Below, one piece after another: positions 671 to 14,402 of a DNA stretch of 14,424 bases. Below the pieces are notes generated by a model. That model saw only the letters and a program-made list of their open reading frames with translations, was not told where the DNA came from and made no database searches. Made by a program: the position numbers and the translations under genes. This DNA is from a bacterium (GTDB lineage: Bacteria; Eisenbacteria; RBG-16-71-46): NCBI GenBank assembly GCA_043779265.1, contig JAYWEM010000018.1:1-14424 (forward strand), in the 5' to 3' direction. The first letter of the stretch is position 1, and each line of letters opens with the position of its first letter.

Positions 671-3139
671 TCACCCCTTCATCTCGGCAGGTGGGGCCGC
701 GGACTTGAGTGCTGCATGACCTCCCGTGCGGAACGCGGGTCGTGACAACTGTTTGAGGACCACGACCGTGAGGTCGTCGAGCGGCTCGTCGGCATGCGCG
801 CGCACCGCCCGGAGCAGCGCCTCCAGGATGTCCCCGGCCCTGCGATGCCCGTGCCTGGCGAGCACGGCGCCGATCCCCTCGGTGCCGAACTGCTCGCCCT
901 CGCGCATCGCCTCGGTGAGTCCATCGGTGTAGAGCAGCACCACGTCGCCCGCCGCGAGTTCGAGGGTCGACGTCTCATAGCTGGCATCAGGCGAGACCCC
1001 GAGCAGGATCCCGCTCTCGGCGTGCTCCTCCAGTGTGCGGGCGGCGCGCCACACGATCGGCGGCGTCAGGCCGCCGTTGGCGAAACGCACGGTCGCGGTC
1101 GCGGCGTCGACTCGCGCGCACAGGAGTCCCATGAACTTGTCGGGCTGCTGAAGGGCGACGAGGTCGCGATTGAGTACTTCGAGCAGTTCGCCCGGATGGC
1201 GCGTGCGCGTGGCCTCATCGCGGAAGCGCGCCTGCACGCCGGCCATGACGAGCGCCGCCGCGACGCCGTGGCCCGCGGCATCGCCGACGGCGAGCACGAA
1301 CTCGCGTGGTCCGGTCTCGATCACATCGTAGTAGTCGCCACCGACCGCCTCGCTCGAGAGCGTCACGGCGGCGCAGTCGAGCGTCGGCAGCACGGGCAGT
1401 CGGCGCGGCAGACGATGCATCTGCACCACGTGCGCCTCGGCCAGTTCACGCTCGAAGGTTCCTCGATGCGTGCGCTCGCGGCGGAGTTCGATGTGCTCGA
1501 GTCCGACCGAGAGGCGATCGGCCAGCTGCCGCAGGTCGCGCACCTCGTGCACATCGATCCAGCCGCCGGTCAGCCGCCTCCCCAGGAGGATCACGGCCGC
1601 GTGAGGACCACCTGCCACCGGCACGAGCCAATGGACATTCGAACCTTCGAGCGCGTCGCGGTCCTCGTGCGCCAGATCGAGGTCGGCGAGCGCGATGGGG
1701 CCACTCGCGCGCTTCAGCGCATCGGCGAAGCCGGCCCCGAGCACCGGTGCTCGCCTCATTCCCGCGTGCGCCACCGCCTGTGTCGGGCCGAGCCGGAGCG
1801 CCGAGACCCCGTCGAGTCGCAGTGAAGTCATGATCGCCTCGCACGCCTCTTCCATCGCGAGTCGCGGATCGGCGCCGCGAGCGGCCTCGGGACTCGGCGC
1901 CCAGCCACTCAGGGCATGTTCGCCCGCGATCGGCACCATGCGCTCGCCGACCTGGCTGAGCCATGGCCGGGCGGGGCCCGCCAACGAGGCGACCAGCACG
2001 AGGAACGCGAGCGATGCCCCGGCGACTCCCTGACTCGCGCCGGGCAGCAGCGTCGGCGCCAGCGTCTCGCCCGCGATCGCGATGGCGAAGGCGAGTGCCC
2101 CTGCGATGGCGAGCGCCAACCCGGCCCGCAGCGCCACGCGGAAGTCGAAGACGCGGTGGACCGCGATCGCCCACGCGAACGAAGCGGGCATGAGCAGCGT
2201 GGCGACCACGGCCATGCGCTCGCCCGGCAACTGATCGTCGGTCGACAGGTTGCGAAGCGCGACCAGTACCGCGAACGGTGCGGCGCCGAGCAGCGTCCCG
2301 AGGAAGGCCACCCGCAGACGCCGCCTCGCATCGGCGCTCTTCGCACGCGCCAGGGCTCCCGCGAACAGCACGAGGCCGCCGAGGAAACCTGCGGCGAGCG
2401 TGAGTCCGGCCGCCGCGCTCAGCCACGGCCTCGCGACCAGCGCCAACTGCCCGGCACCGAACTCGTCCTCGAACAGCACGACGCCCCACGCGAGAAGCGA
2501 CAGTGCGCCCGCCGCATAGCAGGCTCGCACCCACACGCGAGCGCGTGGCCTGTCACCGGGCTCGGGGAACAGCGCGAAGAAATGCGAGAACAGCGCGGGG
2601 ATGAAGAGCTGGACGACGAGCAGCGAGAGTTGGTGCAGCGCTGCGGCAGCGCCGGTCAGCCGGGGCGGCGGCGCGAGCCATCCGGCGAAGCACAGGCTGA
2701 GCAGGAAGAACACGGCGGTCAGTCGGTCGCGACGCTCGCTCCACACCCAGCCACCCAGCAGGAGGAAGCCGCAGGCCACGGCGTACAGGAGGGACTTGAA
2801 GCGGCGTTCCTCGACCGGCAGCGGTTCGGGCGCGATCCAGACTTGCGAGCGCTCGGCCAGTCGCTCGCGCTCGAGCACCAGGGGCCGGCCAGGCGTGGCC
2901 ATGGCGAGCGGGCCCATCGAGAGCAGCCGGGTCCGCTCACCCGGGCGGTGCAGCAGGTCTCCGGGGCGCAGTCCGGCACGGGCCCCGGGGCTACCGGGCT
3001 CGATGGTGACGATTCGATCTCCCTGCAGCGTCAGGCCGGTCCAGCCGTGACGAGGCAGGCTCAGAGCCGAAAGCAGGAGTGCCGCCGTGGCGGGGACCAG
3101 AAGCCACGAGAGCGCTCGCATCTCACCGGGACGGCCCAT
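671..3139 (-). CDS. Membrane-bound PDZ + multi-TM + GAF-like + SpoIIE/RsbU-family PP2C serine phosphatase, 822 aa
   Basis: N-terminal hydrophobic segment, PDZ signature ([18 protein letters not shown]) and several TM helices. PP2C motifs [23 protein letters not shown] and DDLTVV are intact. SD GGAGGA precedes ATG 3139. Confidence 0.92.
681..708 (-). promoter_or_regulatory. sigma28 (FliA/SigD/WhiG)-type promoter inside the 3' end of the phosphatase gene
   Basis: TCAAGTCC-N12-GCCGAGAT (TCAA-N16-GCCGAGAT). Same -35 octamer and spacing as the csrA promoter. Confidence 0.65.
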
Positions 3140-3245: not shown

Positions 3246-3273
3246 TCAAGTCCTCTCGTGCATTGGCCGATAT
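3246..3273 (+). promoter_or_regulatory. sigma28-type promoter of csrA-flgM
   Basis: TCAA-N16-GCCGATAT, a near-consensus SigD/FliA promoter, 65 nt upstream of csrA. Confidence 0.85.
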
Positions 3274-3338: not shown

Positions 3339-3566
3339 ATGCTGGTCCTGACAAGGAAGTTGGGCGAGAACATCCGGATCGGAGACTCGGTGAAGATCAC
3401 CGTGTTGGAAGTCCGTTCGGGCCAGGTCAAACTGGGCATCGACGCTCCACCGGACGTGAAGGTGCACCGCGAGGAGATCTACGCGCGCATCCAGGAGGAG
3501 AATCGGCGAAGTGCCGCGGGCGGCAAGCCCCCGTCACCGCCGGATGCCTCCGCGGGTAAGCGCTGA
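3339..3566 (+). CDS. csrA: Carbon storage regulator CsrA, 75 aa
   Basis: [48 protein letters not shown] is the canonical CsrA sequence. Start at ATG 3339 after GGAGG. Confidence 0.97.
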
Positions 3567-3609: not shown

Positions 3610-3816
3610 ATGCCGAGCCCAAGTCGCCGGAGCAACTCGAAGGGGAACCCGGATGCGAGCGTACCCGAGGTGAAGCCCGTTTCCGCGCAGGCGAAGATCC
3701 TCAACCTGTCCAAGATCGACGCCGTCCGCCGTCGCATCGCGAACGGCTACTACGATCGGGACGAGGTGCGCGACCGTCTCGCCCATGCCGTGCTCGAGGA
3801 GCTGCGCGAGGACTGA
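3610..3816 (+). CDS. flgM: FlgM-like anti-sigma28 factor, 68 aa
   Basis: Disordered N-terminus, then KIDAVRRRIANGYY-x(6)-DRLAHAVL, matching the FlgM C-terminal pattern (KVxxxKxxIxxGxY...IAxxLL). SD GAGGAG. Lies downstream of a sigma28 promoter. Confidence 0.75.
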   Translation: MPSPSRRSNSKGNPDASVPEVKPVSAQAKILNLSKIDAVRRRIANGYYDRDEVRDRLAHAVLEELRED

Positions 3817-3894
3817 GTGGAATCGGCGGCTACCCGCCTTCCCCCCGGACGTGCATAATGCTCTCGACTCGCGATGGACCGCGAGGACAAGCCC

Positions 3895-5097
3895 ATGCCC
3901 ACACGCCCCGCGCGCCGAGAAGGCGCATCCCCGCTCGCTGAGCTGGTCGACGCGCTCATGGAGGACGCGGCGACGGCTGTCCTCATCGTGGCGTCCGATG
4001 GCTCGCTCATCCGCCACAATGACGCGGCCCCCCGACTGTTCGGACTCTCGACCGCTGCGATGTCGCGCGCGACCGGGAGTGATCTGCTGCGGACGGTGGT
4101 GGCGGGCGAGGACCTGTTGGGCGATGCGCAGCGCGCCGTCCGCACCGAACGCGAGGCCGTGCTGGCGACTGCCAAGGCGGGCGACATCCCGGTGCGGGTG
4201 CGCAGCCACCGGCTGGGCGACCCGCCGATCGTGCTCGTCACCATCGAGGACATGACCCAGACGAGACGGACGCAGCAGGACCTGCGTCGGCATGAGCGGC
4301 TCGCCACGCTGGGCCAACTCTCGGCGGGTGTGGCGCACGAGATCCGCAATCCGCTCGCGGGCATCGGCACCAGTGCCCAGGTGCTGCTCCGACGATTCGA
4401 GGCCGGCGACGAGCGCGCCCGCTTCGTGCAGGTGATCCTCGATGAGGTGGCGCGGCTCGACCGCATCGTCTCGAGCCTGTTGCAGTACGCGCGGCCGCGC
4501 ACACCCGAACTGCGCCCCTCCTTGCTCGCGGACTGCGTGCAGCGCGTCGTCGCGCTCTCAGCCGAGATGACCATCAAGGCCGAGGTGCAGGTCGAGGTGG
4601 TCGCGGCGCCCAAGCTGGCGCACCTGTGGATCGACCCCGATCTGGTCCAGCAGGTCCTGCTCAACACCACGCTGAATGCCGTGCAGGCGATGCCCGAAGG
4701 TGGGACCCTGCGGATCGAAGTGCGCAAGGTGCGTCACAAGCGACCGCCGCGCGGCCCCGGGAGGCGAGCCGAGGATCTCTCGGGCGAGCGAGCGCGCGAC
4801 GAATCGGGATGGATCGAGTACCAGCAGATCCGCATCAGCGACACCGGCGTCGGCATCCCCAAGGGGGTGCTCGCCAAACTGTTCGATCCCTTCTTCACGA
4901 CCAAGGCCACGGGCACCGGGCTCGGGCTCAGCATCTCGCAGACCATCATGCAGGAGCACGGCGGTTCGATCGCCGTGGACAGCCGTGAGGGACGCGGGAC
5001 CACGGTGCTCATCGACTTCCCATTGGAGAAACGCCATGGATCGAGGCGACAGCGTGACACGAGCGGGGACGGCGCAGAGTCTGCTCATCGTCGATGA
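3895..5097 (+). CDS. Cytoplasmic PAS-domain histidine kinase (NtrB/FlrB/FleS-like), about 400 aa
   Basis: PAS-like N-terminus, H box AHEIRNPL, N box NAVQAM, DTGVGI, FDPFFTTK and GTGLGL. Start at 3895 (SD GAGGA) or 3874. Confidence 0.93.
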   Translation: MPTRPARREGASPLAELVDALMEDAATAVLIVASDGSLIRHNDAAPRLFGLSTAAMSRATGSDLLRTVVAGEDLLGDAQRAVRTEREAVLATAKAGDIPVRVRSHRLGDPPIVLVTIEDMTQTRRTQQDLRRHERLATLGQLSAGVAHEIRNPLAGIGTSAQVLLRRFEAGDERARFVQVILDEVARLDRIVSSLLQYARPRTPELRPSLLADCVQRVVALSAEMTIKAEVQVEVVAAPKLAHLWIDPDLVQQVLLNTTLNAVQAMPEGGTLRIEVRKVRHKRPPRGPGRRAEDLSGERARDESGWIEYQQIRISDTGVGIPKGVLAKLFDPFFTTKATGTGLGLSISQTIMQEHGGSIAVDSREGRGTTVLIDFPLEKRHGSRRQRDTSGDGAESAHRR

Positions 5098-6460
5098 CGA
5101 GCGCACGCTGCGCTTCTCGATCGGCGAATGGGCACGCGATCAGGGCTTCACACCCATCGAGGCCTCCACGGGTCGCGAGGCGCTCGAGGCGATGCGCGAG
5201 CAGAGCGTCGATGCGGTGCTGCTCGACCTGCGCCTTGGCGACGAGGACGGCATCAAGCTGCTGAAGCACCTGCGGGAGATCGACCCGACCGTGCCGGTCG
5301 TGATGCTCACCGGCCACGGCACCGTCGAGCACGCGGTGCGCGCCATCAAGATGGGCGCCTATGACTTCATGCTGAAGCCGCCGGACCTCGATCACCTGGC
5401 GGTGGTCCTCGAGCGCGCCATCGAGCATGGGCGGTTGAAGCAGGAGGTCTCCCACCTGCGGCAGCGCACCGCCCAGTCCCAGACGATCATCGGTGCCAGC
5501 GCGAGCCTGGCGCGCGTGTTGCAGCGCCTGGAGCGCGCAGCGCAGGCGCCGACCGCCACCGTGCTGATCCACGGCGAAACGGGGGCGGGCAAGGAGTTGA
5601 TGGCGCGCTATCTGCATGACCACTCCGCGCGCGCCGAGGGCCCGTTCGTCGAGCTGAACTGCTCGGCGATCCCGGAGTCGCTGCTCGAGAGCGAGCTCTA
5701 CGGTCACGAACGCGGCGCTTTCACGGACGCCAAGCGATTCAAGAAGGGTCTGTTCGAAGTCGCGGACGGCGGGACGTTGTTCCTCGATGAGATCGGGGAG
5801 ATGGCGCCTGCGCTGCAGGCCAAGCTCCTGCGCGTGCTCGAGACGCGGACGTTCCGCCGCGTCGGTGGACATGCCGACATCACCGTCGATGTCCGCGTGG
5901 TGGCGGCGACCCACCGGAACCTGCCGAAGATGGTGAGCGATGGCGGCTTTCGTGAGGATCTCTACTTCCGTCTCAATGTCGTCCCGATCGAGGTGCCGCC
6001 CTTGCGCGAGCGTCTCGATGACATCCCGGTGCTCGCTGAGCACTTCGTGCAGAAGCTGGCACGTGAACTGGGCCGCCCCGCCGTCCGGCTGACGCCCCAG
6101 GTGGTGGCCGCGCTGCAGAAGCACCGCTGGCCCGGCAACGTGCGTGAGCTGCGCAATGTGCTCGAGCGCGTCGTGCTGCTCGAGGCCGACGATGAGATCC
6201 TCGTCGAGCACCTGCCGCCCGAGTGGCTCGTCGGCTCGGCGAGCCCGCGTGCGGCTGCGGCGGGGGTCAGCTTCACGGGGCAGGAGGTGCGTCCGCTCGA
6301 GGAGATCGAACGCCTGGCCATCGAGCATGCACTCAGGCTCTGCGGCGGGAACAAGACCCGCGCCTCCGAGAAACTCGGGATCTCCCGCCAGACCCTGAGA
6401 ACGAAGCTCAAGGATCTCAAGCTGAGTGACGATGCAGAGGGGGAGTCGGACGAGGGCTGA
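5036..6460 (+). CDS. sigma54-dependent response regulator (REC-AAA+-Fis HTH; NtrC/FlrC/FleR family), 474 aa
   Basis: IVDD and LLDLRL receiver, Walker [39 protein letters not shown] and a C-terminal HTH. ATG 5036 follows GGAG and overlaps the kinase end by 62 nt. Confidence 0.96.
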
Positions 6461-6702: not shown

Positions 6703-6718
6703 TGGCATGCGGACTGCA
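6703..6718 (+). promoter_or_regulatory. sigma54 (-24/-12) promoter
   Basis: TGGCATGCGGACTGCA = GG-N10-GC with near-consensus flanks. It sits 19 nt before ATG 6738, at the end of a ~280-nt intergenic region with room for enhancer sites. Confidence 0.75.
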
Positions 6719-6737: not shown

Positions 6738-7172
6738 ATGACGCCGTCCTCCCCAGAGCCACCGGAGCCCACACCGATGCCGCATCTCCTGATCGTGGAA
6801 GACGAGGCGAGCACCTCGTGGGCACTGGCCGAGGGCCTCTCGGATGACGGCTATACGATCGACACCTTCCGCACCGCCGAGGAAGCGCAGCGCTGGCTGC
6901 GCCGCGGCACGAGCGACCTGATCATCTCCGACCTGCGGCTGCCCGGGATCTCGGGCCTCGAGTTCGCGCAGAAGCTCTCGCGCGGTCGTCACGCCCAGCC
7001 GGTCATCCTCGTCTCGGCCTACTCGCTCGATGGCCAGAGCGAGGAGCTGAACGCAGCCGGCATCGTGGATGTGTTCTCGAAGCCCTTCCAGATCGACGCG
7101 CTCCGCCGCTCGGTGCGCCGCGCGCTGCTCACCGCGACGCCGCGCCGGGTCCCGGCACGGAGGGCCGCGTGA
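6738..7172 (+). CDS. Single-domain response regulator (CheY-like receiver), 144 aa
   Basis: LLIVED, ISDLRLPGISG, VSAY and FSKPF all intact. ATG 6738 follows AGGA (alternative ATG at 6777). Confidence 0.92.
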   Translation: MTPSSPEPPEPTPMPHLLIVEDEASTSWALAEGLSDDGYTIDTFRTAEEAQRWLRRGTSDLIISDLRLPGISGLEFAQKLSRGRHAQPVILVSAYSLDGQSEELNAAGIVDVFSKPFQIDALRRSVRRALLTATPRRVPARRAA

Positions 7173-7408
7173 ACCGCCGTCTGCCGGATGCCGTTCGCGC
7201 ACTCCCCGAGGCGGTGCGTGCCTCGGCCGCGATCGAGACGCTGACGCCGCGCGAGCGCTCGGTCCTGGCACTCATGCTGATCGAGGGTCTCTCCCCGGTC
7301 GAAGTCGCCGGCGCGCTCGGTACGTCCGCCCGTCAGATCGAGCGTCTCTACAGCGCGGCGCTCGGTTCGGTCTCACGTGAGATGCACGGCGTCCGGAGGG
7401 CGGCATGA
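7169..7408 (+). CDS. Stand-alone sigma70 region-4 (HTH) protein, 79 aa
   Basis: IETLTPRERSVLALMLIEGLSPVEVAGALGTS aligns by eye with the FliA region 4 in this window (IDQLPEQERLVVALYYYEHMTLKEIGRTLGIS). GGAGG SD and GTGA coupling. Confidence 0.8.
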   Translation: MNRRLPDAVRALPEAVRASAAIETLTPRERSVLALMLIEGLSPVEVAGALGTSARQIERLYSAALGSVSREMHGVRRAA

Positions 7409-7638
7409 GCTGGAGCGCCCCGATGACGCCCGCGGCGGATGTCCGTCGTCCGATGCCCGGAACGCTCCAGGAGCGTCTCGCCGCGGCGGATCGTGCGGTC
7501 GCCTCGCTCGTCATCGAGCAGCAGCTGGCCGAGGCCCTGCACGCCGAGGTGCCGCAGGCACGCTGCCACCACCAGCTCCGCTACTGGCGCTTCGTCCGCA
7601 ACGTCCTGGCCGCGAGCAGCGGGGAGGTGCGGGCGTGA
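7405..7638 (+). CDS. Hypothetical helical protein, 77 aa
   Basis: ATGA overlap upstream, GTGA overlap downstream, GGAGG SD, high-GC3 codon usage. No family recognised. Confidence 0.7.
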   Translation: MSWSAPMTPAADVRRPMPGTLQERLAAADRAVASLVIEQQLAEALHAEVPQARCHHQLRYWRFVRNVLAASSGEVRA

Positions 7639-8531
7639 ATCCGTCCGAGCCGAACATGCGCGTGGTCGCCGGTGGTGAGGGCGAGGCCGTGCTCGGCGCT
7701 GGTCATGCCGCCGAGATGAGCCGTCCGCGCACGCGCACCATCGTCATCGCGAGTGGCAAGGGCGAGGTGGGCAAGTCGAACCTCTGCGCGAATCTGGCGC
7801 TGGCGCTGGCCGAGCGTGGCGCTCGCGTCCTGCTCGTCGATGGCGATCTGGCGCAGGCGAACCTCGACCTGATCCTCGGCGTGCATCCGCGCTGGGACAT
7901 CTCGGATGTCCTGAAGAACGAGCGCACGCTCGACGAGGTGCTGGTCTCGGTCGCGCGCGGCGTGCAGTTGGTGCCGGCCGCCTCGGGCGCCCCGGAACTG
8001 GCCGAACTCGACGACATGCGTCGCGAGACGTTCCTGCGCACGATCGGCTCAGTCGATCCGGCGCCGGATCTGGTGCTCATCGACACGGCCTCGGGTGCTT
8101 CGCGTCAGACCACGGCGCTGTGCCGCGCCGGGCACGAGACGATCGTCGTGACGACGCCCGAGATGCCCGCCTTCTCGGAGGCCTACGCCCTGGTCAAGCT
8201 GCTGCATCAGCAGGGCCTGGCGCAGGCCCCGCGCGTCGTCGTCAGCATGGCCAACTCCGACGAGGAGGCCCAGGAGACGTCGCACCATCTTCGTCTGGTC
8301 GCGCGCCGGTTCCTCCGCATCGAGCTCGAGTGCCTGGGGGTCATCCCGTATGACGCCTCGGTGCCGCGTGCGATGCGGCAGCAGGAGCCCGTGCTGAGCG
8401 CGTTCCCCGATTCTGCCGCGGCACGTGCGTATCGCGCACTGGCCGCGCGTTGCTGGAAGGGCCCGTCGTCGGGGCCGCAGGAAGCTGTCGCCACGAAGTC
8501 CGAGATGAAGCCCCAACGTCTCGTCGCCTAG
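7635..8531 (+). CDS. flhG: FlhG/FleN-like MinD/ParA ATPase, 298 aa
   Basis: IASGKGEVGKSN, VLLVDGDLAQANLDLILG, LVPAASG, VLIDTASG and VVTTPE. Directly upstream of fliA. GTG 7635 follows GGAGG. Confidence 0.85.
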   Translation: MNPSEPNMRVVAGGEGEAVLGAGHAAEMSRPRTRTIVIASGKGEVGKSNLCANLALALAERGARVLLVDGDLAQANLDLILGVHPRWDISDVLKNERTLDEVLVSVARGVQLVPAASGAPELAELDDMRRETFLRTIGSVDPAPDLVLIDTASGASRQTTALCRAGHETIVVTTPEMPAFSEAYALVKLLHQQGLAQAPRVVVSMANSDEEAQETSHHLRLVARRFLRIELECLGVIPYDASVPRAMRQQEPVLSAFPDSAAARAYRALAARCWKGPSSGPQEAVATKSEMKPQRLVA

Positions 8532-8542
8532 GAGGTCACCCC

Positions 8543-9415
8543 ATGCCCCGTGCCGCTTCGCTCCCCGCCCGTCGCACCGCCAGCAAGACCGCCGCGCCCG
8601 CCCGTCGTCCTGAACTGAAGGTCGTCGCGGGCCGCAAGCCCGCTGCGGCGCCGATCGCATCGGTCGCCGTCGCGGATGCACCGACCCCGGTGACGTACGA
8701 CAAGAACAACCTCCTCAAGCGATTCGCGCCGCTCGTGCGGCATGTCGTCGAGCGCGTCGCGGCGACCCTGCCGCGCAACGTCGATCATGAGGACCTCTAT
8801 TCGGCAGGTGTGCTCGGGCTGCTCGACGCGCATGCGAAGTTCGACACGGGTAAGGGCGTCAAGTTCGAGACCTACGCCGTGTGGCGCATCAAGGGTGCCG
8901 TTCTGGACCAGCTGCGGGCGCTCGACTGGGCTTCGCGTTCGATGCGTCGCAAGGCGCGCAACCTCGACGGTGTGACGCGCAAGCTCGATCAGAAGCTGGG
9001 ACGGGCCGCTTCCGAGGAGGAGGTCGCGCGCGAGCTGAAGATGTCGCGCGAGGACTTCTATCGTCTACTGGATCATGTGCGCGGCGCGGTGCTCGTCTCG
9101 CTCGACGAGTCGCGCACGCAGGACGGCGACGACCAGGGTTCGCTCTCGGATCATCTGGCCGACCCGAGCGCCCCGGATCTGGAGGAGCGCCTCGAGACCG
9201 AGCAGGAGCGCCATCTGATGATGGGTGTCATCGACCAGCTGCCCGAGCAGGAGCGGCTCGTCGTCGCCCTCTACTACTACGAGCACATGACGCTCAAGGA
9301 GATCGGCCGCACGCTGGGGATCTCCGAGTCACGTGTCTCCCAGGTCCACACACGGGCCATGTCCCGCCTGCGCCTTCGCATGAACAAGGCGATGTCCCTG
9401 GATGAGGCCGCGTGA
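8543..9415 (+). CDS. fliA: RNA polymerase sigma factor FliA/WhiG family (sigma28), 290 aa
   Basis: EDLYSAGVLGLLDA, KFETYAVWRIKGAVLDQLRALDW and LKEIGRTLGISESRVSQVH. ATG 8543 follows AGGAGG. Confidence 0.95.
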   Translation: MPRAASLPARRTASKTAAPARRPELKVVAGRKPAAAPIASVAVADAPTPVTYDKNNLLKRFAPLVRHVVERVAATLPRNVDHEDLYSAGVLGLLDAHAKFDTGKGVKFETYAVWRIKGAVLDQLRALDWASRSMRRKARNLDGVTRKLDQKLGRAASEEEVARELKMSREDFYRLLDHVRGAVLVSLDESRTQDGDDQGSLSDHLADPSAPDLEERLETEQERHLMMGVIDQLPEQERLVVALYYYEHMTLKEIGRTLGISESRVSQVHTRAMSRLRLRMNKAMSLDEAA

Positions 9416-10789: not shown

Positions 10790-12514
10790 TTGTCCGAACC
10801 CGCGCACCTGTCGTCGGATTCCCCCGCATTGACCCCGCAGCCGGCTCGCGTGCTCGTCGTCGAAGACGACGAGACGGTGGCGGACGTGCTGCGCGAGGCG
10901 CTTGCCGACGCGCGATTCTCGTTGGAGTTCGCCGTCGACGCCGAGTCGGCCGTGCGCTCGATCGACGAGCGTCCGCCGGATCTCGTGCTCACGGACATCA
11001 GCCTTCCCGGCCGCTCCGGCTTGGACGTGATGCGGCACGTGCGGGGTCGCGACCCCGAAGCCGCGGTCATCCTGATGACCGGCTACGCCACGACGCAGAA
11101 CGCGATCGACGCCCTTCGCGAGGGCGCGTGCGAGTTCATCACCAAGCCATTCGACGACATCGCCAAGCTCCCCGACATCCTCGAGAAGCATCTCGGGAAT
11201 CGCCGTCTGCGACTGCAGAACACCGCGCTCATGAGCGAACTGCGGGAGAAGAACACCGTCCTCGAGCACCACGAGCAGGAACTGCGCGAGCGCGTCGAGT
11301 TGGCCACAAGGCAGATGGCGACGCTCTATCGCGTCGCGATGGAGATCGGCACCGATCTCGGACTGGCGCCCAGGCTCGACCGGATCAACAAGGTCGCCAT
11401 GCAGCAGGCGGGTGCGAACGGTTCGGGCGTCTGGCTGTTGCACGAGGAGAGTGGCGAGTTCGCGCTCATCTCGCATGCCGGTGCCGAGCGCGCCGAAGGC
11501 GAGGAGGAGGCGCATCGATTCGCGTCCGGCGCCGGACCGCTGGGTGCCACGGTGCAGACTCGAACGCCCATGCGACACGCGACGTGCGAGTCGCTTCCCG
11601 GCCTGATCGTCCGGCGCGAGACCACGCTGATGGTCGTGCCGTTCGTCCAGGGCGATACCTGCTTCGGCGTGATCGCGGTGTGGGGGAAGCTCGGGGGGTT
11701 CACGGCCGACGACCAGGAGTTCCTCTCCCTGTTCGCCTCGCAGGCCGCGGTCCAGATCCGCAACTCGCAGTTGTTCGAGCACACCAAGAGCCTCGACCGT
11801 CTCAAGTCCGATTTCGTCGCCGTCGTCTCGCATGAGATCCGAACGCCGCTCACGTCGGTCAAGGGCGCGGTGGAACTGCTGTCCGACGATCGTTATTTCC
11901 AGAACAACGACCAGCAGGGCAAGCTCCTCACGATCGCGCATGCCAACGCCGAGCGCCTGCTCCTGCTCATCAACGACATCCTCGACTTCAGCAAGCTCGA
12001 GTCGGCCTCGCTGTTCATGACCATCGAGCGTCAGCGACTCGAACCCGTCGTCATGCAGGCGAGCCAGAATCTCCGCACGCTCATCGAGGAACGCCGCATC
12101 CGCGTCGACTTCGAACTGAGCGAGGAACTGCCGGATGTCCTACTGGATGCGCACCGCATCACGCAGGTCGTCACCAATCTGCTCTCCAACGCGATCAAGT
12201 TCTCGCCGAGTGATGGCGCGATCGAACTTCGGGTGCGTGAGGCGGATGGCATGGTCCGAGTCGAGGTGACCGATCGGGGCGAGGGCATCGCGCCGCGCGA
12301 CCTGCCCAAGCTGTTCCGCAAGTTCCAGCAGGTGGACTCCAGTTCGACTCGCAAGGTGGGTGGTACCGGTCTCGGACTCGTCATCAGCAAGGGCATCGTC
12401 GAGCAGCACGGCGGCACGATCGGAGTCGAGAGCGAGTTGGGTGAGGGCAGCACGTTCTGGTTCACGCTGCCGGTCGCCGAACGGACGGCGGGGGAGAGCG
12501 CACTGCGCGCTTGA
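10790..12514 (+). CDS. Hybrid histidine kinase REC-coiled coil-GAF-HisKA-HATPase, 574 aa
   Basis: VVEDD, LTDISLPG and ITKPF receiver, GAF (FTADDQEFLSLFASQAA), SHEIRTPL, NLLSNAIKF, DRGEGI and GGTGLGL. TTG start after GAGG. Confidence 0.94.
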   Translation: MSEPAHLSSDSPALTPQPARVLVVEDDETVADVLREALADARFSLEFAVDAESAVRSIDERPPDLVLTDISLPGRSGLDVMRHVRGRDPEAAVILMTGYATTQNAIDALREGACEFITKPFDDIAKLPDILEKHLGNRRLRLQNTALMSELREKNTVLEHHEQELRERVELATRQMATLYRVAMEIGTDLGLAPRLDRINKVAMQQAGANGSGVWLLHEESGEFALISHAGAERAEGEEEAHRFASGAGPLGATVQTRTPMRHATCESLPGLIVRRETTLMVVPFVQGDTCFGVIAVWGKLGGFTADDQEFLSLFASQAAVQIRNSQLFEHTKSLDRLKSDFVAVVSHEIRTPLTSVKGAVELLSDDRYFQNNDQQGKLLTIAHANAERLLLLINDILDFSKLESASLFMTIERQRLEPVVMQASQNLRTLIEERRIRVDFELSEELPDVLLDAHRITQVVTNLLSNAIKFSPSDGAIELRVREADGMVRVEVTDRGEGIAPRDLPKLFRKFQQVDSSSTRKVGGTGLGLVISKGIVEQHGGTIGVESELGEGSTFWFTLPVAERTAGESALRA

Positions 12515-12540
12515 CGCATCGCGGTGCGGTTCACTAGGTT
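12511..12540 (+). promoter_or_regulatory. sigma70-type promoter overlapping the kinase stop codon
   Basis: TTGACG (12511-12516), 18-nt spacer, TAGGTT (12535-12540). Confidence 0.55.
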
Positions 12541-12544
12541 GCAG

Positions 12545-12579
12545 GCGGCCTCTGATGGATCGGGGGCCGCTTCCTTCTT
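12545..12579 (+). terminator. Terminator-like hairpin with a GGA loop
   Basis: 11-bp stem GCGGCCTCTGA / TCGGGGGCCGC (two G-U pairs), loop TGGA, followed by TTCCTTCTT. Confidence 0.6.
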
Positions 12580-12623
12580 CCGCCGTGCGGACTCCTCGCT
12601 GCCCGGAAAGGTCCTCTCCGACG

Positions 12624-14402
12624 ATGCGCGCCATGGATGACGCCGCTTCGCAGTCCCGTGCTGTTCCCGATCGTTCCGCCCGGATCGCCCTGCTGCTCGT
12701 GGGAGCGTTGGCCGGTGCGATTCTCGCGATCGGGCTTGCGCCCCGCTCACTCGCACGTTTCGAAGTGCGTCTGCCGTGGGCCGGTGCATCGCTGACCGCA
12801 GCCGACTGGCCACGCGATCCGCTGCCTGGCGAAGAGGCGATCGTCCGAGTCGGTGCGAACGGCATGGAACTCGTCGTCCGCGCCCCCGAGGCCGCGATGG
12901 CCGAGGCGCTCGCACGGGAGATCTCCGCGCAGCAGGTCAGCGCGCTTCCTCTGTTGCGCGAGATCGAGGTCGAACTGCGCGCGGCGTGGCGCCTCTCGGT
13001 TCCACACGGGCCCTCGCTGCCGATGACGCGCGAGAGCGAGGTCGCGGCGCTGCTCCTGGGTGAGGCCGCGCTGCGCCGCGATCTCGCGCTGCAGTTGCCC
13101 GGTCCCTACGCGGCGGCCCCGGCCGAGCATCTCGCGGTCCCGAGCCTCGCCGTGCTCGAGCGTCAGCAGGAGCTCTCGCTGGCGATTCCCGCCGCCGATC
13201 CCGATCGCATCGAACAGTTGCTGATCACGGCCGCAGCCGATGAGTCCGACTGGCTCGCCGCCAGTGGCGTGGCCGGCAGCTCCGCGAGCGAGCGCGGCTC
13301 GGCGTGGCGTCGCTGGCAGCTGGCGCGAGCCGATTCGCTCAGCGTCATCGCCGAGCGATTGCTCGAGAGCGAGACGGCGTTGCAGCAGTCGCTCGCCGCG
13401 TGGGCGATGCCCGCTCAGCGCTCCGCGCTGGGCGAGACCCGTCGCTCGTCCTATCTCGCGCTCGCGCGTGCACAGGTGCCGCCCACGGTCCCCGGCGCCG
13501 GTCCGATCGCAGGCGTCTGGGCGATGGTGATCGGCATCGGCGCGCTGACCGGTGCCGCTGCGGCCAGCTTCGGCGGGTGGGTCGCGCGTCGCGGCCGCAA
13601 TCGTGGCGCAAAGGCATCGCCGACCGCGTTCCCCGGCCGTGATCCGGGAGCGACGGAAGCGTGGCTGCACGTCGTCACCGGACCCGATCGCACGTCGATC
13701 GCGCGCGCCGTCCTCGAACTCGCCTCACACACGCTGGCGAGGGGAGAGCGCGCCCTCATCATCGACGCGAGCACGCGCCTCGCCCTGCACGAACGGCTCG
13801 GCCGCGAGGCGCGCTGGGGCCTGATGGAGTGCCTGCACTGCGACATGCCGGTTCTGGGACTGGTGCAGTACGGTGGATGGCCGGGGCTCTATCTGCTCGC
13901 CCATGGCGAGACCAAGCGGGCCTCGGCGGGCTGGTCAGGGCTCGGCCGGCGGTTGGATGAAGCGAAGCCGCACTTCGGGCGGATCCTGTTCTGCGTCGAC
14001 CAGGCGGCGCCGCGCGAGCTGGGGGAGGCGCTGATGGGTCGGCCGCTGGAGGGCTGGTGGGCCGAGTCCGGGGAGCGCCTGCCGAGGCAGGCGGACGAGC
14101 TCCCGGGCCGACTCGGTATCGCATTCTCCTGCATCGACATGCGCCACTTCCCGGAGGTCACGCTCGAACGGCTCGGGGAGCGCGCCGCAGCGCTGGCGCC
14201 GAGCATCCAGGTCGAACCGGCACCAGTCGTGACCCCGGCGCCGATTCCTCCGGCCGAGGTGGCCGTGGAGATCCCGGTGATCCCGGAGGGTCCGGTCGTG
14301 TTGGACTGCGACTTGCAAGTCCAGCAGCGACTGCGGTTCCTGGCGTGGATGCGCCGGGTCCAGTCCGAGAGCCGCCGCGAGGAACTCGAACCGGTCGCCT
14401 GA
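12624..14402 (+). CDS. Wzc/GumC-like membrane protein with degenerate P-loop (BY-kinase/MinD-like) C-terminal domain, about 590 aa
   Basis: Two TM segments flank a long helical region. Then LHVVTGPDRTS, LASHTLARGERALIIDAS, GLMECL, PGLYLLAHG and HFGRILFCVD follow the CpsD/Wzc motif order without catalytic residues. Start at 12624 or 12633. Confidence 0.65.
   Translation: MRAMDDAASQSRAVPDRSARIALLLVGALAGAILAIGLAPRSLARFEVRLPWAGASLTAADWPRDPLPGEEAIVRVGANGMELVVRAPEAAMAEALAREISAQQVSALPLLREIEVELRAAWRLSVPHGPSLPMTRESEVAALLLGEAALRRDLALQLPGPYAAAPAEHLAVPSLAVLERQQELSLAIPAADPDRIEQLLITAAADESDWLAASGVAGSSASERGSAWRRWQLARADSLSVIAERLLESETALQQSLAAWAMPAQRSALGETRRSSYLALARAQVPPTVPGAGPIAGVWAMVIGIGALTGAAAASFGGWVARRGRNRGAKASPTAFPGRDPGATEAWLHVVTGPDRTSIARAVLELASHTLARGERALIIDASTRLALHERLGREARWGLMECLHCDMPVLGLVQYGGWPGLYLLAHGETKRASAGWSGLGRRLDEAKPHFGRILFCVDQAAPRELGEALMGRPLEGWWAESGERLPRQADELPGRLGIAFSCIDMRHFPEVTLERLGERAAALAPSIQVEPAPVVTPAPIPPAEVAVEIPVIPEGPVVLDCDLQVQQRLRFLAWMRRVQSESRREELEPVA

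Follow-up and report, generated by a model that had tools for sequence, protein, structure and literature searches.

What does a free-standing sigma region 4 do when its gene lies between a single-domain receiver and the gene for the sigma factor FliA (sigma-28)? The window, by which we mean the whole 14,424-nucleotide stretch of Candidatus Eisenbacteria DNA analyzed here, encodes such a protein, 79 amino acids long. An earlier note on this DNA had proposed that the protein and the receiver form a split PhyR-like decoy that titrates FlgM, an anti-sigma factor, and replaces export as the checkpoint. We find that the gene is real, phylum-wide, and apparently undescribed, and that its mechanism would be weaker and plainer than proposed. 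Our tentative reading, which falls somewhat short of probable, is that the 79-aa protein buffers FlgM, that it does so under sigma-54 induction and independently of the receiver, and that this function has weakened in the source lineage.

The genes of the window run in the order csrA, short flgM, PAS kinase, NtrC-type activator and, after a 277-nt gap, receiver, 79-aa sigma4 gene, 77-aa open reading frame (ORF), flhG, fliA, HisKA-like ORF, GGDEF protein, and hybrid kinase (Table 1). The receiver ORF opens at 6738, and its homologues begin at Met 6777. The receiver and sigma4 genes overlap by 4 nt, as do the genes at the junctions at 7405 and 7635, and 11 nt separate flhG from fliA; in flagellated relatives, flhG follows flhF. 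From these overlaps and a common sigma-54 site, we infer that receiver, sigma4 gene, and fliA are co-transcribed, as the earlier note had it. In 28/28 loci (shuffle rate, 0.003), a sigma-54 site precedes the receiver by 52-75 nt; two of 30 loci were excluded from this count, one an ECF locus and one a cut locus. The earlier note does not mention this promoter. Among 31 further loci, 23 have the site upstream of the sigma4 gene, directly upstream where the receiver is absent. The NtrC-type activator is likely, from its position, to act on this downstream promoter. Scanning the plus strand for sigma-70 promoters and terminators found nothing relevant. The sigma-28 promoter previously placed at 3246 is present and visibly conserved ahead of csrA in relatives.

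Table 1. Features of the window (positions count from its first nucleotide)
Feature	Position	Strand	Remarks
PDZ-SpoIIE membrane phosphatase	671..3139	-	Divergent from csrA; syntenic in many families
Sigma-28-type promoter, csrA-flgM	3246..3272	+	15-nt spacer; sigma-70-like site just upstream
csrA	3339..3566	+	Pfam CsrA, 91.8 bits
Short flgM	3610..3816	+	Only two C-terminal helices conserved
PAS histidine kinase	3874..5097	+	Pfam
NtrC-type sigma-54 activator	5036..6460	+	Pfam
Sigma-54 -24/-12 promoter	6703..6717	+	Predicted to head the receiver-sigma4-fliJ remnant-flhG-fliA operon
Single-domain receiver, 144 aa	6738..7172	+	Pfam, 77.4 bits; probable start 6777
Sigma-region-4-only protein, 79 aa	7169..7408	+	GTG start; Pfam, predicted fold, residue mapping
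77-aa helical hairpin	7405..7638	+	Candidate FliJ C-terminal remnant
flhG/fleN-type MinD ATPase	7635..8531	+	Profile matches
fliA (sigma-28)	8543..9415	+	Region 4 intact; TIGR02479, 251 bits, above cut-off
HisKA-only ORF, 131 aa	9412..9807		Coupled to fliA and the GGDEF gene; conserved in families f1 and f3
Large conserved ORF	12360..14402		Closes the island; no Pfam or NCBIfam match

One further observation concerns FlhG, whose Walker A loop (about 7757-7783) carries Glu versus Gly in 16 other matching loci among L001-L030. The substitution may mark an inactive protein or an assembly error.

The 79-aa protein is a region 4 and nothing else, as had been noted. It scores above the cut-offs of two Pfam models, Sigma70_r4_2 (33.6 bits) and Sigma70_r4 (30.3 bits), and no sigma2 or sigma3 domain was found with Pfam and NCBIfam profiles. 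Its predicted structure (pLDDT 89.6) resembles sigma4 domains including 1RP3, with no Foldseek match at E 0.001. The altered recognition helix can be read directly from the translations, SARQIER versus SESRVSQ in FliA. The 79-aa protein shares 13/52 core residues with the FliA of the same genome (BLASTP E, 0.013). Signals of FliA descent differ among methods: profile searches favor FliA, and position scores favor ECF sigma factors. Specifically, the family profile, not the single protein, puts WhiG/FliA first among solved structures and longer proteins, and the single 79-aa sequence scores ECF and PhyR models above FliA. By position scores, for which the control is biased because its ECFs were chosen as matches of the sigma4 family profile, region 4.1 is nearer ECF than FliA in 58/60 rows and the helix-turn-helix in 60/60. 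A tree of 56 columns and 75 rows sets the sigma4 family apart at 94/78 instead of nesting it in FliA.

The arrangement extends far beyond the window. A search of 61 genomes matched 46, and the same cassette occurs in 29/30 loci examined, the remaining locus being an ECF sigma. In 27/29 loci, the start of the sigma4 gene overlaps the stop of the receiver, a figure that depends partly on the choice of start codon, and 20 longer loci keep the whole island as far as their contigs extend. With further loci (40 around flgM, 20 around fliA, and 20 outgroup clusters), sigma4-only orthologues were collected from 60 Ca. Eisenbacteria genomes, 30 in the family of the source genome and 30 outside it. Phylum-wide, the sigma4 gene occupies the first or second place in a sigma-54 operon, by a kinase and an NtrC-type activator and downstream of flgM.

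In tallies of 153 genomes of the phylum, which include the unpublished genome G038 as one row, 147 have FliA, 130 have a FlgM-like gene, and 53 have FlhA. Because FliA and FlgM are so widespread and FlhA is not, most of the phylum must free sigma-28 without export. The sigma4 gene cannot be the full answer to this problem, since no copy was found in the searched genomes of families f11 and f13. In family f11, FliA occurs in 30/30 genomes and FlgM in 29/30, with no FlhA above the cut-off, and the sigma4-only gene was not found in four f11 genomes and one f13 genome searched whole. In the 15 genomes searched whole, we examined 90 of 188 matches; 82 had a sigma2 signal, and the remaining eight looked like ECF sigmas on visual inspection, two being short fragments. 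Both f11 and f13 keep FliA and FlgM; thus, flagella-less FliA-FlgM systems occur without the sigma4 gene, a point against a FlgM buffer. In the searched genomes of f10, f17, f8, and f18, neither the sigma4 gene nor the syntenic flgM was found, and FliA remains; this shared absence speaks for a FlgM buffer. One genome (G138, 92% complete) keeps a divergent sigma4 copy and has another ORF at the flgM site. No FlgM was found in G138, which we count against a FlgM buffer.

We mapped the contact residues described in PMC12784957 and bioRxiv 2020.01.02.893370 onto the family through alignments. Both sources give K213, S224, R225, and Q228 as the DNA contacts of sigma-28. These are kept in 49-52/52 FliA rows versus 6, 2, 8, and 1 of 60 sigma4-only rows. 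The 79-aa protein has V, R, Q, and R there, with none of the -35 contacts kept. Judged by sequence, the sigma-28 DNA contacts are gone from the sigma4-only protein.

The FlgM contacts on FliA region 4 are L187, I191, L200, A203, L204, Y206, and L210 (PMC12784957). Of these seven, FliA keeps 6.95 (57 rows), sigma4-only proteins outside the source family 6.6 (30 rows), those of the source family 5.1 (30 rows), and ECFs 4.9 (81 rows), with conservative substitutes counted as kept, two gapped ECF rows left out, and the anchoring of two family rows adjusted manually. The 79-aa protein keeps four. L187, I191, L204, and L210 are generic sigma4 residues kept equally in ECFs, which counts against a FlgM buffer. 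FliA is separated from ECF by L200 and A203, found outside the source family in 28/30 and 29/30 rows versus 8 and 15 of 71 ECF rows. The source family is FliA-like only at 203; it has an aliphatic residue at 200 in 11/30 rows and Tyr, Phe, or His at 206 in only 2/30. Column entropy is 1.5 bits for the FlgM face versus 2.6 bits for the DNA contacts. An L204 mutation is described as weakening FlgM binding from 2.2 to 422 nM (PMC12784957), and this position is Leu, Met, or Ile in 59/60 sigma4-only rows; literature on FlgM-resistant FliA mutants yielded no list of residues. PMC12784957 has FlgM also binding sigma2, sigma3, and the linker of FliA; the sigma4-only protein is without these sites, which counts against a decoy.

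Erosion of the face in the source family means that its copy probably binds FlgM less well than do those of flagellated relatives, and the window's copy would rank among the poorer FlgM-binding candidates. Leu at 206 may not be a loss, given that the FlgM residue bonding Y206 (Glu104) is Leu or Phe in 53/66 FlgM rows. This equivalence was drawn by pattern, as aligning the phylum's FlgM to the solved FlgM chains gave no match. Separately, genomes G138 and G042 hinted that loss of Tyr206 tracks loss of FlgM; we rejected this idea, as G048 and G045 have Arg206 yet FlgM.

The short flgM is itself divergent, reaching E 0.057 with TIGR03824 and falling below the Pfam FlgM cut-off when taken alone. 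Its profile finds the syntenic proteins of family f2 (E, 1.6e-12 and 1.6e-9), which pass that cut-off; since it is orthologous to these proteins of flagellated relatives, we take the ORF to be FlgM. The FlgM core is conserved in 66 distinct rows. Here only the sigma4-binding C-terminal helices are left, and the N-terminal helices of f2 FlgM are lost. We also predicted the complex of FlgM with the 79-aa protein, a model that the earlier note had proposed. FlgM(20-68) with the 79-aa protein scored 0.53 versus 0.01 for the best of three controls, with contacts agreeing at least 98% and a partner pLDDT of at least 72. The mark used for this score is reached by 116/157 solved pairs and 2/215 mismatched pairs; at 0.60 or under lie only 18/157 solved pairs and both mismatches. 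The model thus lends weak support to a FlgM-sigma4 complex, and the pass may show likeness only, because FliA-FlgM complexes have already been solved.

Taken together, the protein would be an isolated sigma region 4 that has stopped recognizing the sigma-28 -35 element and acts through protein contacts, with FlgM's pair of C-terminal helices as the likeliest partner. Firing of the activator would lead to synthesis of the decoy, in the source lineage on the same message as FliA. It would take up part of the FlgM pool and so lower the threshold for free sigma-28. Such a buffer would be dosed by transcription, with no phosphorylation switch. We infer all three parts of this scheme, namely expression under the neighboring activator, FlgM binding, and the effect of that binding. 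A FlgM buffer would fit the kept face, the complex model, the trimmed FlgM, and co-translation with FliA in the source lineage, and on these grounds we hold it as a plausible if not yet probable account. The FlgM-titrating decoy of the earlier note thus stands in part: the DNA contacts are lost, the FlgM face is mostly kept in the family, and the complex scores above its controls, but the face is eroded in the window's own copy.

A stronger form of the idea is rather doubtful. In this form, a one-domain, sigma-54-activated sigma mimic would take FlgM off sigma-28 in the cell, most flagella-less lineages would have kept it, and the receiver of the source family would be an added phosphorylation gate. 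If true, the one-domain mimic would be an export-independent input to the FlgM checkpoint, with sigma-28 rewired to non-flagellar genes such as that for an MglA-like GTPase.

Export has not been replaced, contrary to what had been proposed. The source genome encodes three flagellins and FlhA in a separate cluster, and FlhA is present in 26/60 sigma4 carriers. Families f2, f9, f14, and f16 have the sigma4 gene embedded in complete flagellar clusters, with flgM-kinase-activator on one side and the rod genes on the other. Nor is the FlgM face better kept in the absence of FlhA (6.5 without versus 6.67 with FlhA, outside the source family). On our reading, the sigma4 gene predates loss of the ancestral flagellum and its product would act alongside export; we reject it as an export replacement.

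The second flagellar cluster of the source genome (G000:C1:50300-83716) has, with its three flagellins, its own flhF-flhG-fliA and a FlgM-like gene; its FliA is 39% identical, and it presumably carries FlaF/FlbT-like genes. The cluster is patchy in the source family (FlhA in 18/60) and was possibly acquired sideways. The source genome also has eight exact sigma-28-type sites with 15-16 nt spacing, versus 0.35 expected, on contigs C18, C37, C58, C60, C101, C163, C179, and C180 (L268-L274), and the flagellar contig C1 yielded none. Behind these sites are csrA and genes for a HEAT-repeat protein, a receiver, a STAND NTPase, a TPR protein, two poorly annotated proteins, and a small GTPase. We take the GTPase to be MglA-like, although Pfam gives only a weak Arf match.

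Among other explanations of the sigma4-only protein, one makes it a brake. The free sigma4 would rival FliA for RNA polymerase, or bind FliA sigma2/sigma3 in trans, and delay sigma-28 transcription during the sigma-54 programme. PMC4598750 has FlgM covering the polymerase-binding determinants of sigma4, so conservation of the face fits both partners, and R199 and E208 are near-invariant. In flagellated relatives, the sigma4 gene stands at the start of an early operon, at a stage when FlgM should still keep sigma-28 inactive, a timing that tells against a FlgM buffer and suits a brake, as does the gene in G138, where FlgM was not detected. However, L187 and L204 are kept though reported to lie off polymerase and DNA (PMC12784957), the sigma2-facing position 209 is lost, and the gene was not found in searched families that have FliA and lack the syntenic flgM. 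We consider such a competitor unlikely.

The source-family gene could instead be a relaxed remnant of a collapsed flagellar operon, kept partly for translation coupling of the downstream genes. Its neighbor appears to be just such a fragment. The 77-aa ORF is modeled as a helical hairpin (pLDDT 93), has no Pfam name, and sits where fliJ would fall once the structural genes were lost. Its profile matched the C-terminal half of FliJ (25 of 30 FliJ loci fetched) at 79% probability and E 1.6e-5; family-f3 members score 17-25 bits in the FliJ match versus at most 7.9 for reversed decoys. Single-sequence comparisons of the ORF with FliJ were not significant, only the profile comparison being so. The hairpin is thus most likely, by sequence comparison, a C-terminal remnant of FliJ. 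It is under purifying selection in the source lineage (dN/dS, 0.24-0.71) and may have a retained role. The alternatives of a sigma2 subunit or an RsiG-like anti-sigma found no Pfam, fold-search, or Atlas support.

FliJ C-terminal remnants occur in several flagella-less lineages (window 7405-7638 and loci L086, L111, L112, L117, L118, and L128). A FliN-domain remnant also precedes flhG in the flagella-less family f11 (L111:9842-10150).

For the sigma4 gene itself, both remnants make decay conceivable. With ratios that run high because synonymous sites are GC-limited, its dN/dS is 0.22-0.79 (six pairs) versus 0.19-0.33 for the receiver (five pairs). Core identity within the source family is 42% versus 89% for FliA region 4, and the FlgM face there is at ECF level. 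Against a relic, 30/30 family rows have an open frame and a conserved core, dN/dS is below 1 in 6/6 pairs, and the Leu or Phe at the Glu104 equivalent leaves Leu206 explicable. This origin is distinctly unlikely.

A stand-alone helix-turn-helix regulator with a new DNA target, alone or as part of a split response regulator, is very unlikely. The helix-turn-helix core is intact, Arg occupies 228 in about 80% of the source family and 52% of rows outside it, Arg occupies 224 in 60% of the source family, the tails are basic, and there is a weak GerE match below the cut-off. However, the recognition helix is variable inside a single family (2.1 bits versus 0.2 for FliA), K213 and R225, which contact the backbone, have been lost, and the receiver is not required.

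The receiver has an intact phosphorylation site, with the phospho-Asp in 49/51 rows and the Lys in 50/51. It probably signals, and nothing ties it to the sigma4 protein. It adjoins the sigma4 gene in 38/60 loci, is separated from it in three by cheR and a second receiver (cheY), an insertion seen in family f2, and was not found in 19. In five loci of families f13 and f17, a receiver precedes fliA without a sigma4 gene. The receiver is an optional co-passenger and no obligate partner of sigma4. The earlier note's split PhyR, which we spell out as an unphosphorylated receiver masking the sigma4 decoy and phosphorylation releasing it to take FlgM, is highly improbable: frequent adjacency, the intact phospho-site, and a PF22233 score of 25.6 bits, slightly below the cut-off of 27, speak for it, and against it stand the loci with either gene alone, the intervening genes, the absence of a sigma2-like part, and, as weak evidence, the lack of a receiver-sigma4 fusion among 10 longer family-profile matches, all full sigma factors.

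A FlgM buffer dosed by transcription can be set beside several known systems. The fold is that of FliA region 4 in FliA-FlgM (PDB 9WSF and 1RP3), with WhiG/FliA at the top of the family profile and the FlgM face largely kept outside the source family. Unlike FliA, the sigma4-only protein has no sigma2, sigma3, or linker, its -35 contacts are lost, and the tree does not show that it descends from FliA. Likewise, the PhyR of the alphaproteobacterial PhyR-NepR-EcfG system combines a sigma-like domain, proposed to titrate an anti-sigma, with degenerate promoter-binding residues and proximity to a receiver and kinase, according to PMC4598750 and PMC8103513. In PhyR, the receiver is fused to sigma2- and sigma4-like subdomains, and the target is an ECF system. 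The 79-aa protein, in contrast, is sigma4 only and unfused; its receiver is optional, the sigma concerned belongs to group 3, and the promoter is of the sigma-54 type. The protein acts like PhyR at most and is not a PhyR member. The two-subunit sigma SigO-RsoA resembles the locus in having a sigma4-bearing protein apart from sigma2 and an adjacent gene for a small helical partner (PMC8103513). Here, however, the neighbor of the 79-aa gene is the candidate FliJ remnant, which shows no sigma2 signal, and conservation does not extend to the recognition helix. RsiG, the anti-sigma for WhiG, is unrelated (PMC7005675).

A partner switch of another kind may exist nearby in the phylum. In family f2 (G037, L053:14937-19946), genes for HDOD, GAF-SpoIIE, STAS, and HEAT proteins follow flgM, resembling an HsbR/HsbA partner switch, and flagellated f2 relatives have a SpoIIE-STAS pair after flgM as well as the sigma4 gene. 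HsbA is of the STAS type, and Pfam gave no STAS match among the window proteins scanned. The textbook route for releasing sigma-28 is FlgM export (PMC3861889). In the HptB-HsbR-HsbA system of Pseudomonas aeruginosa, HsbA sequesters FlgM, so that FliA is freed without export (PMC5085249); it is thus already an anti-anti-sigma acting on FlgM, phosphorylation-gated and not a sigma mimic. A literature search that had most subscription papers outside its coverage found no description of a sigma4-only FlgM decoy. The earlier statement that sigma28 has no described equivalent therefore holds, in the literature searched, for a sigma-mimic FlgM antagonist and fails for FlgM anti-anti-sigmas, so that the new part would be the sigma-mimic form only. 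Sigma mimicry is established for ECF sigmas through PhyR, and FlgM release through export and HsbA. If our reading is true, a sigma4 decoy of 79-100 residues would extend mimicry to group-3 sigmas, with one domain being enough.
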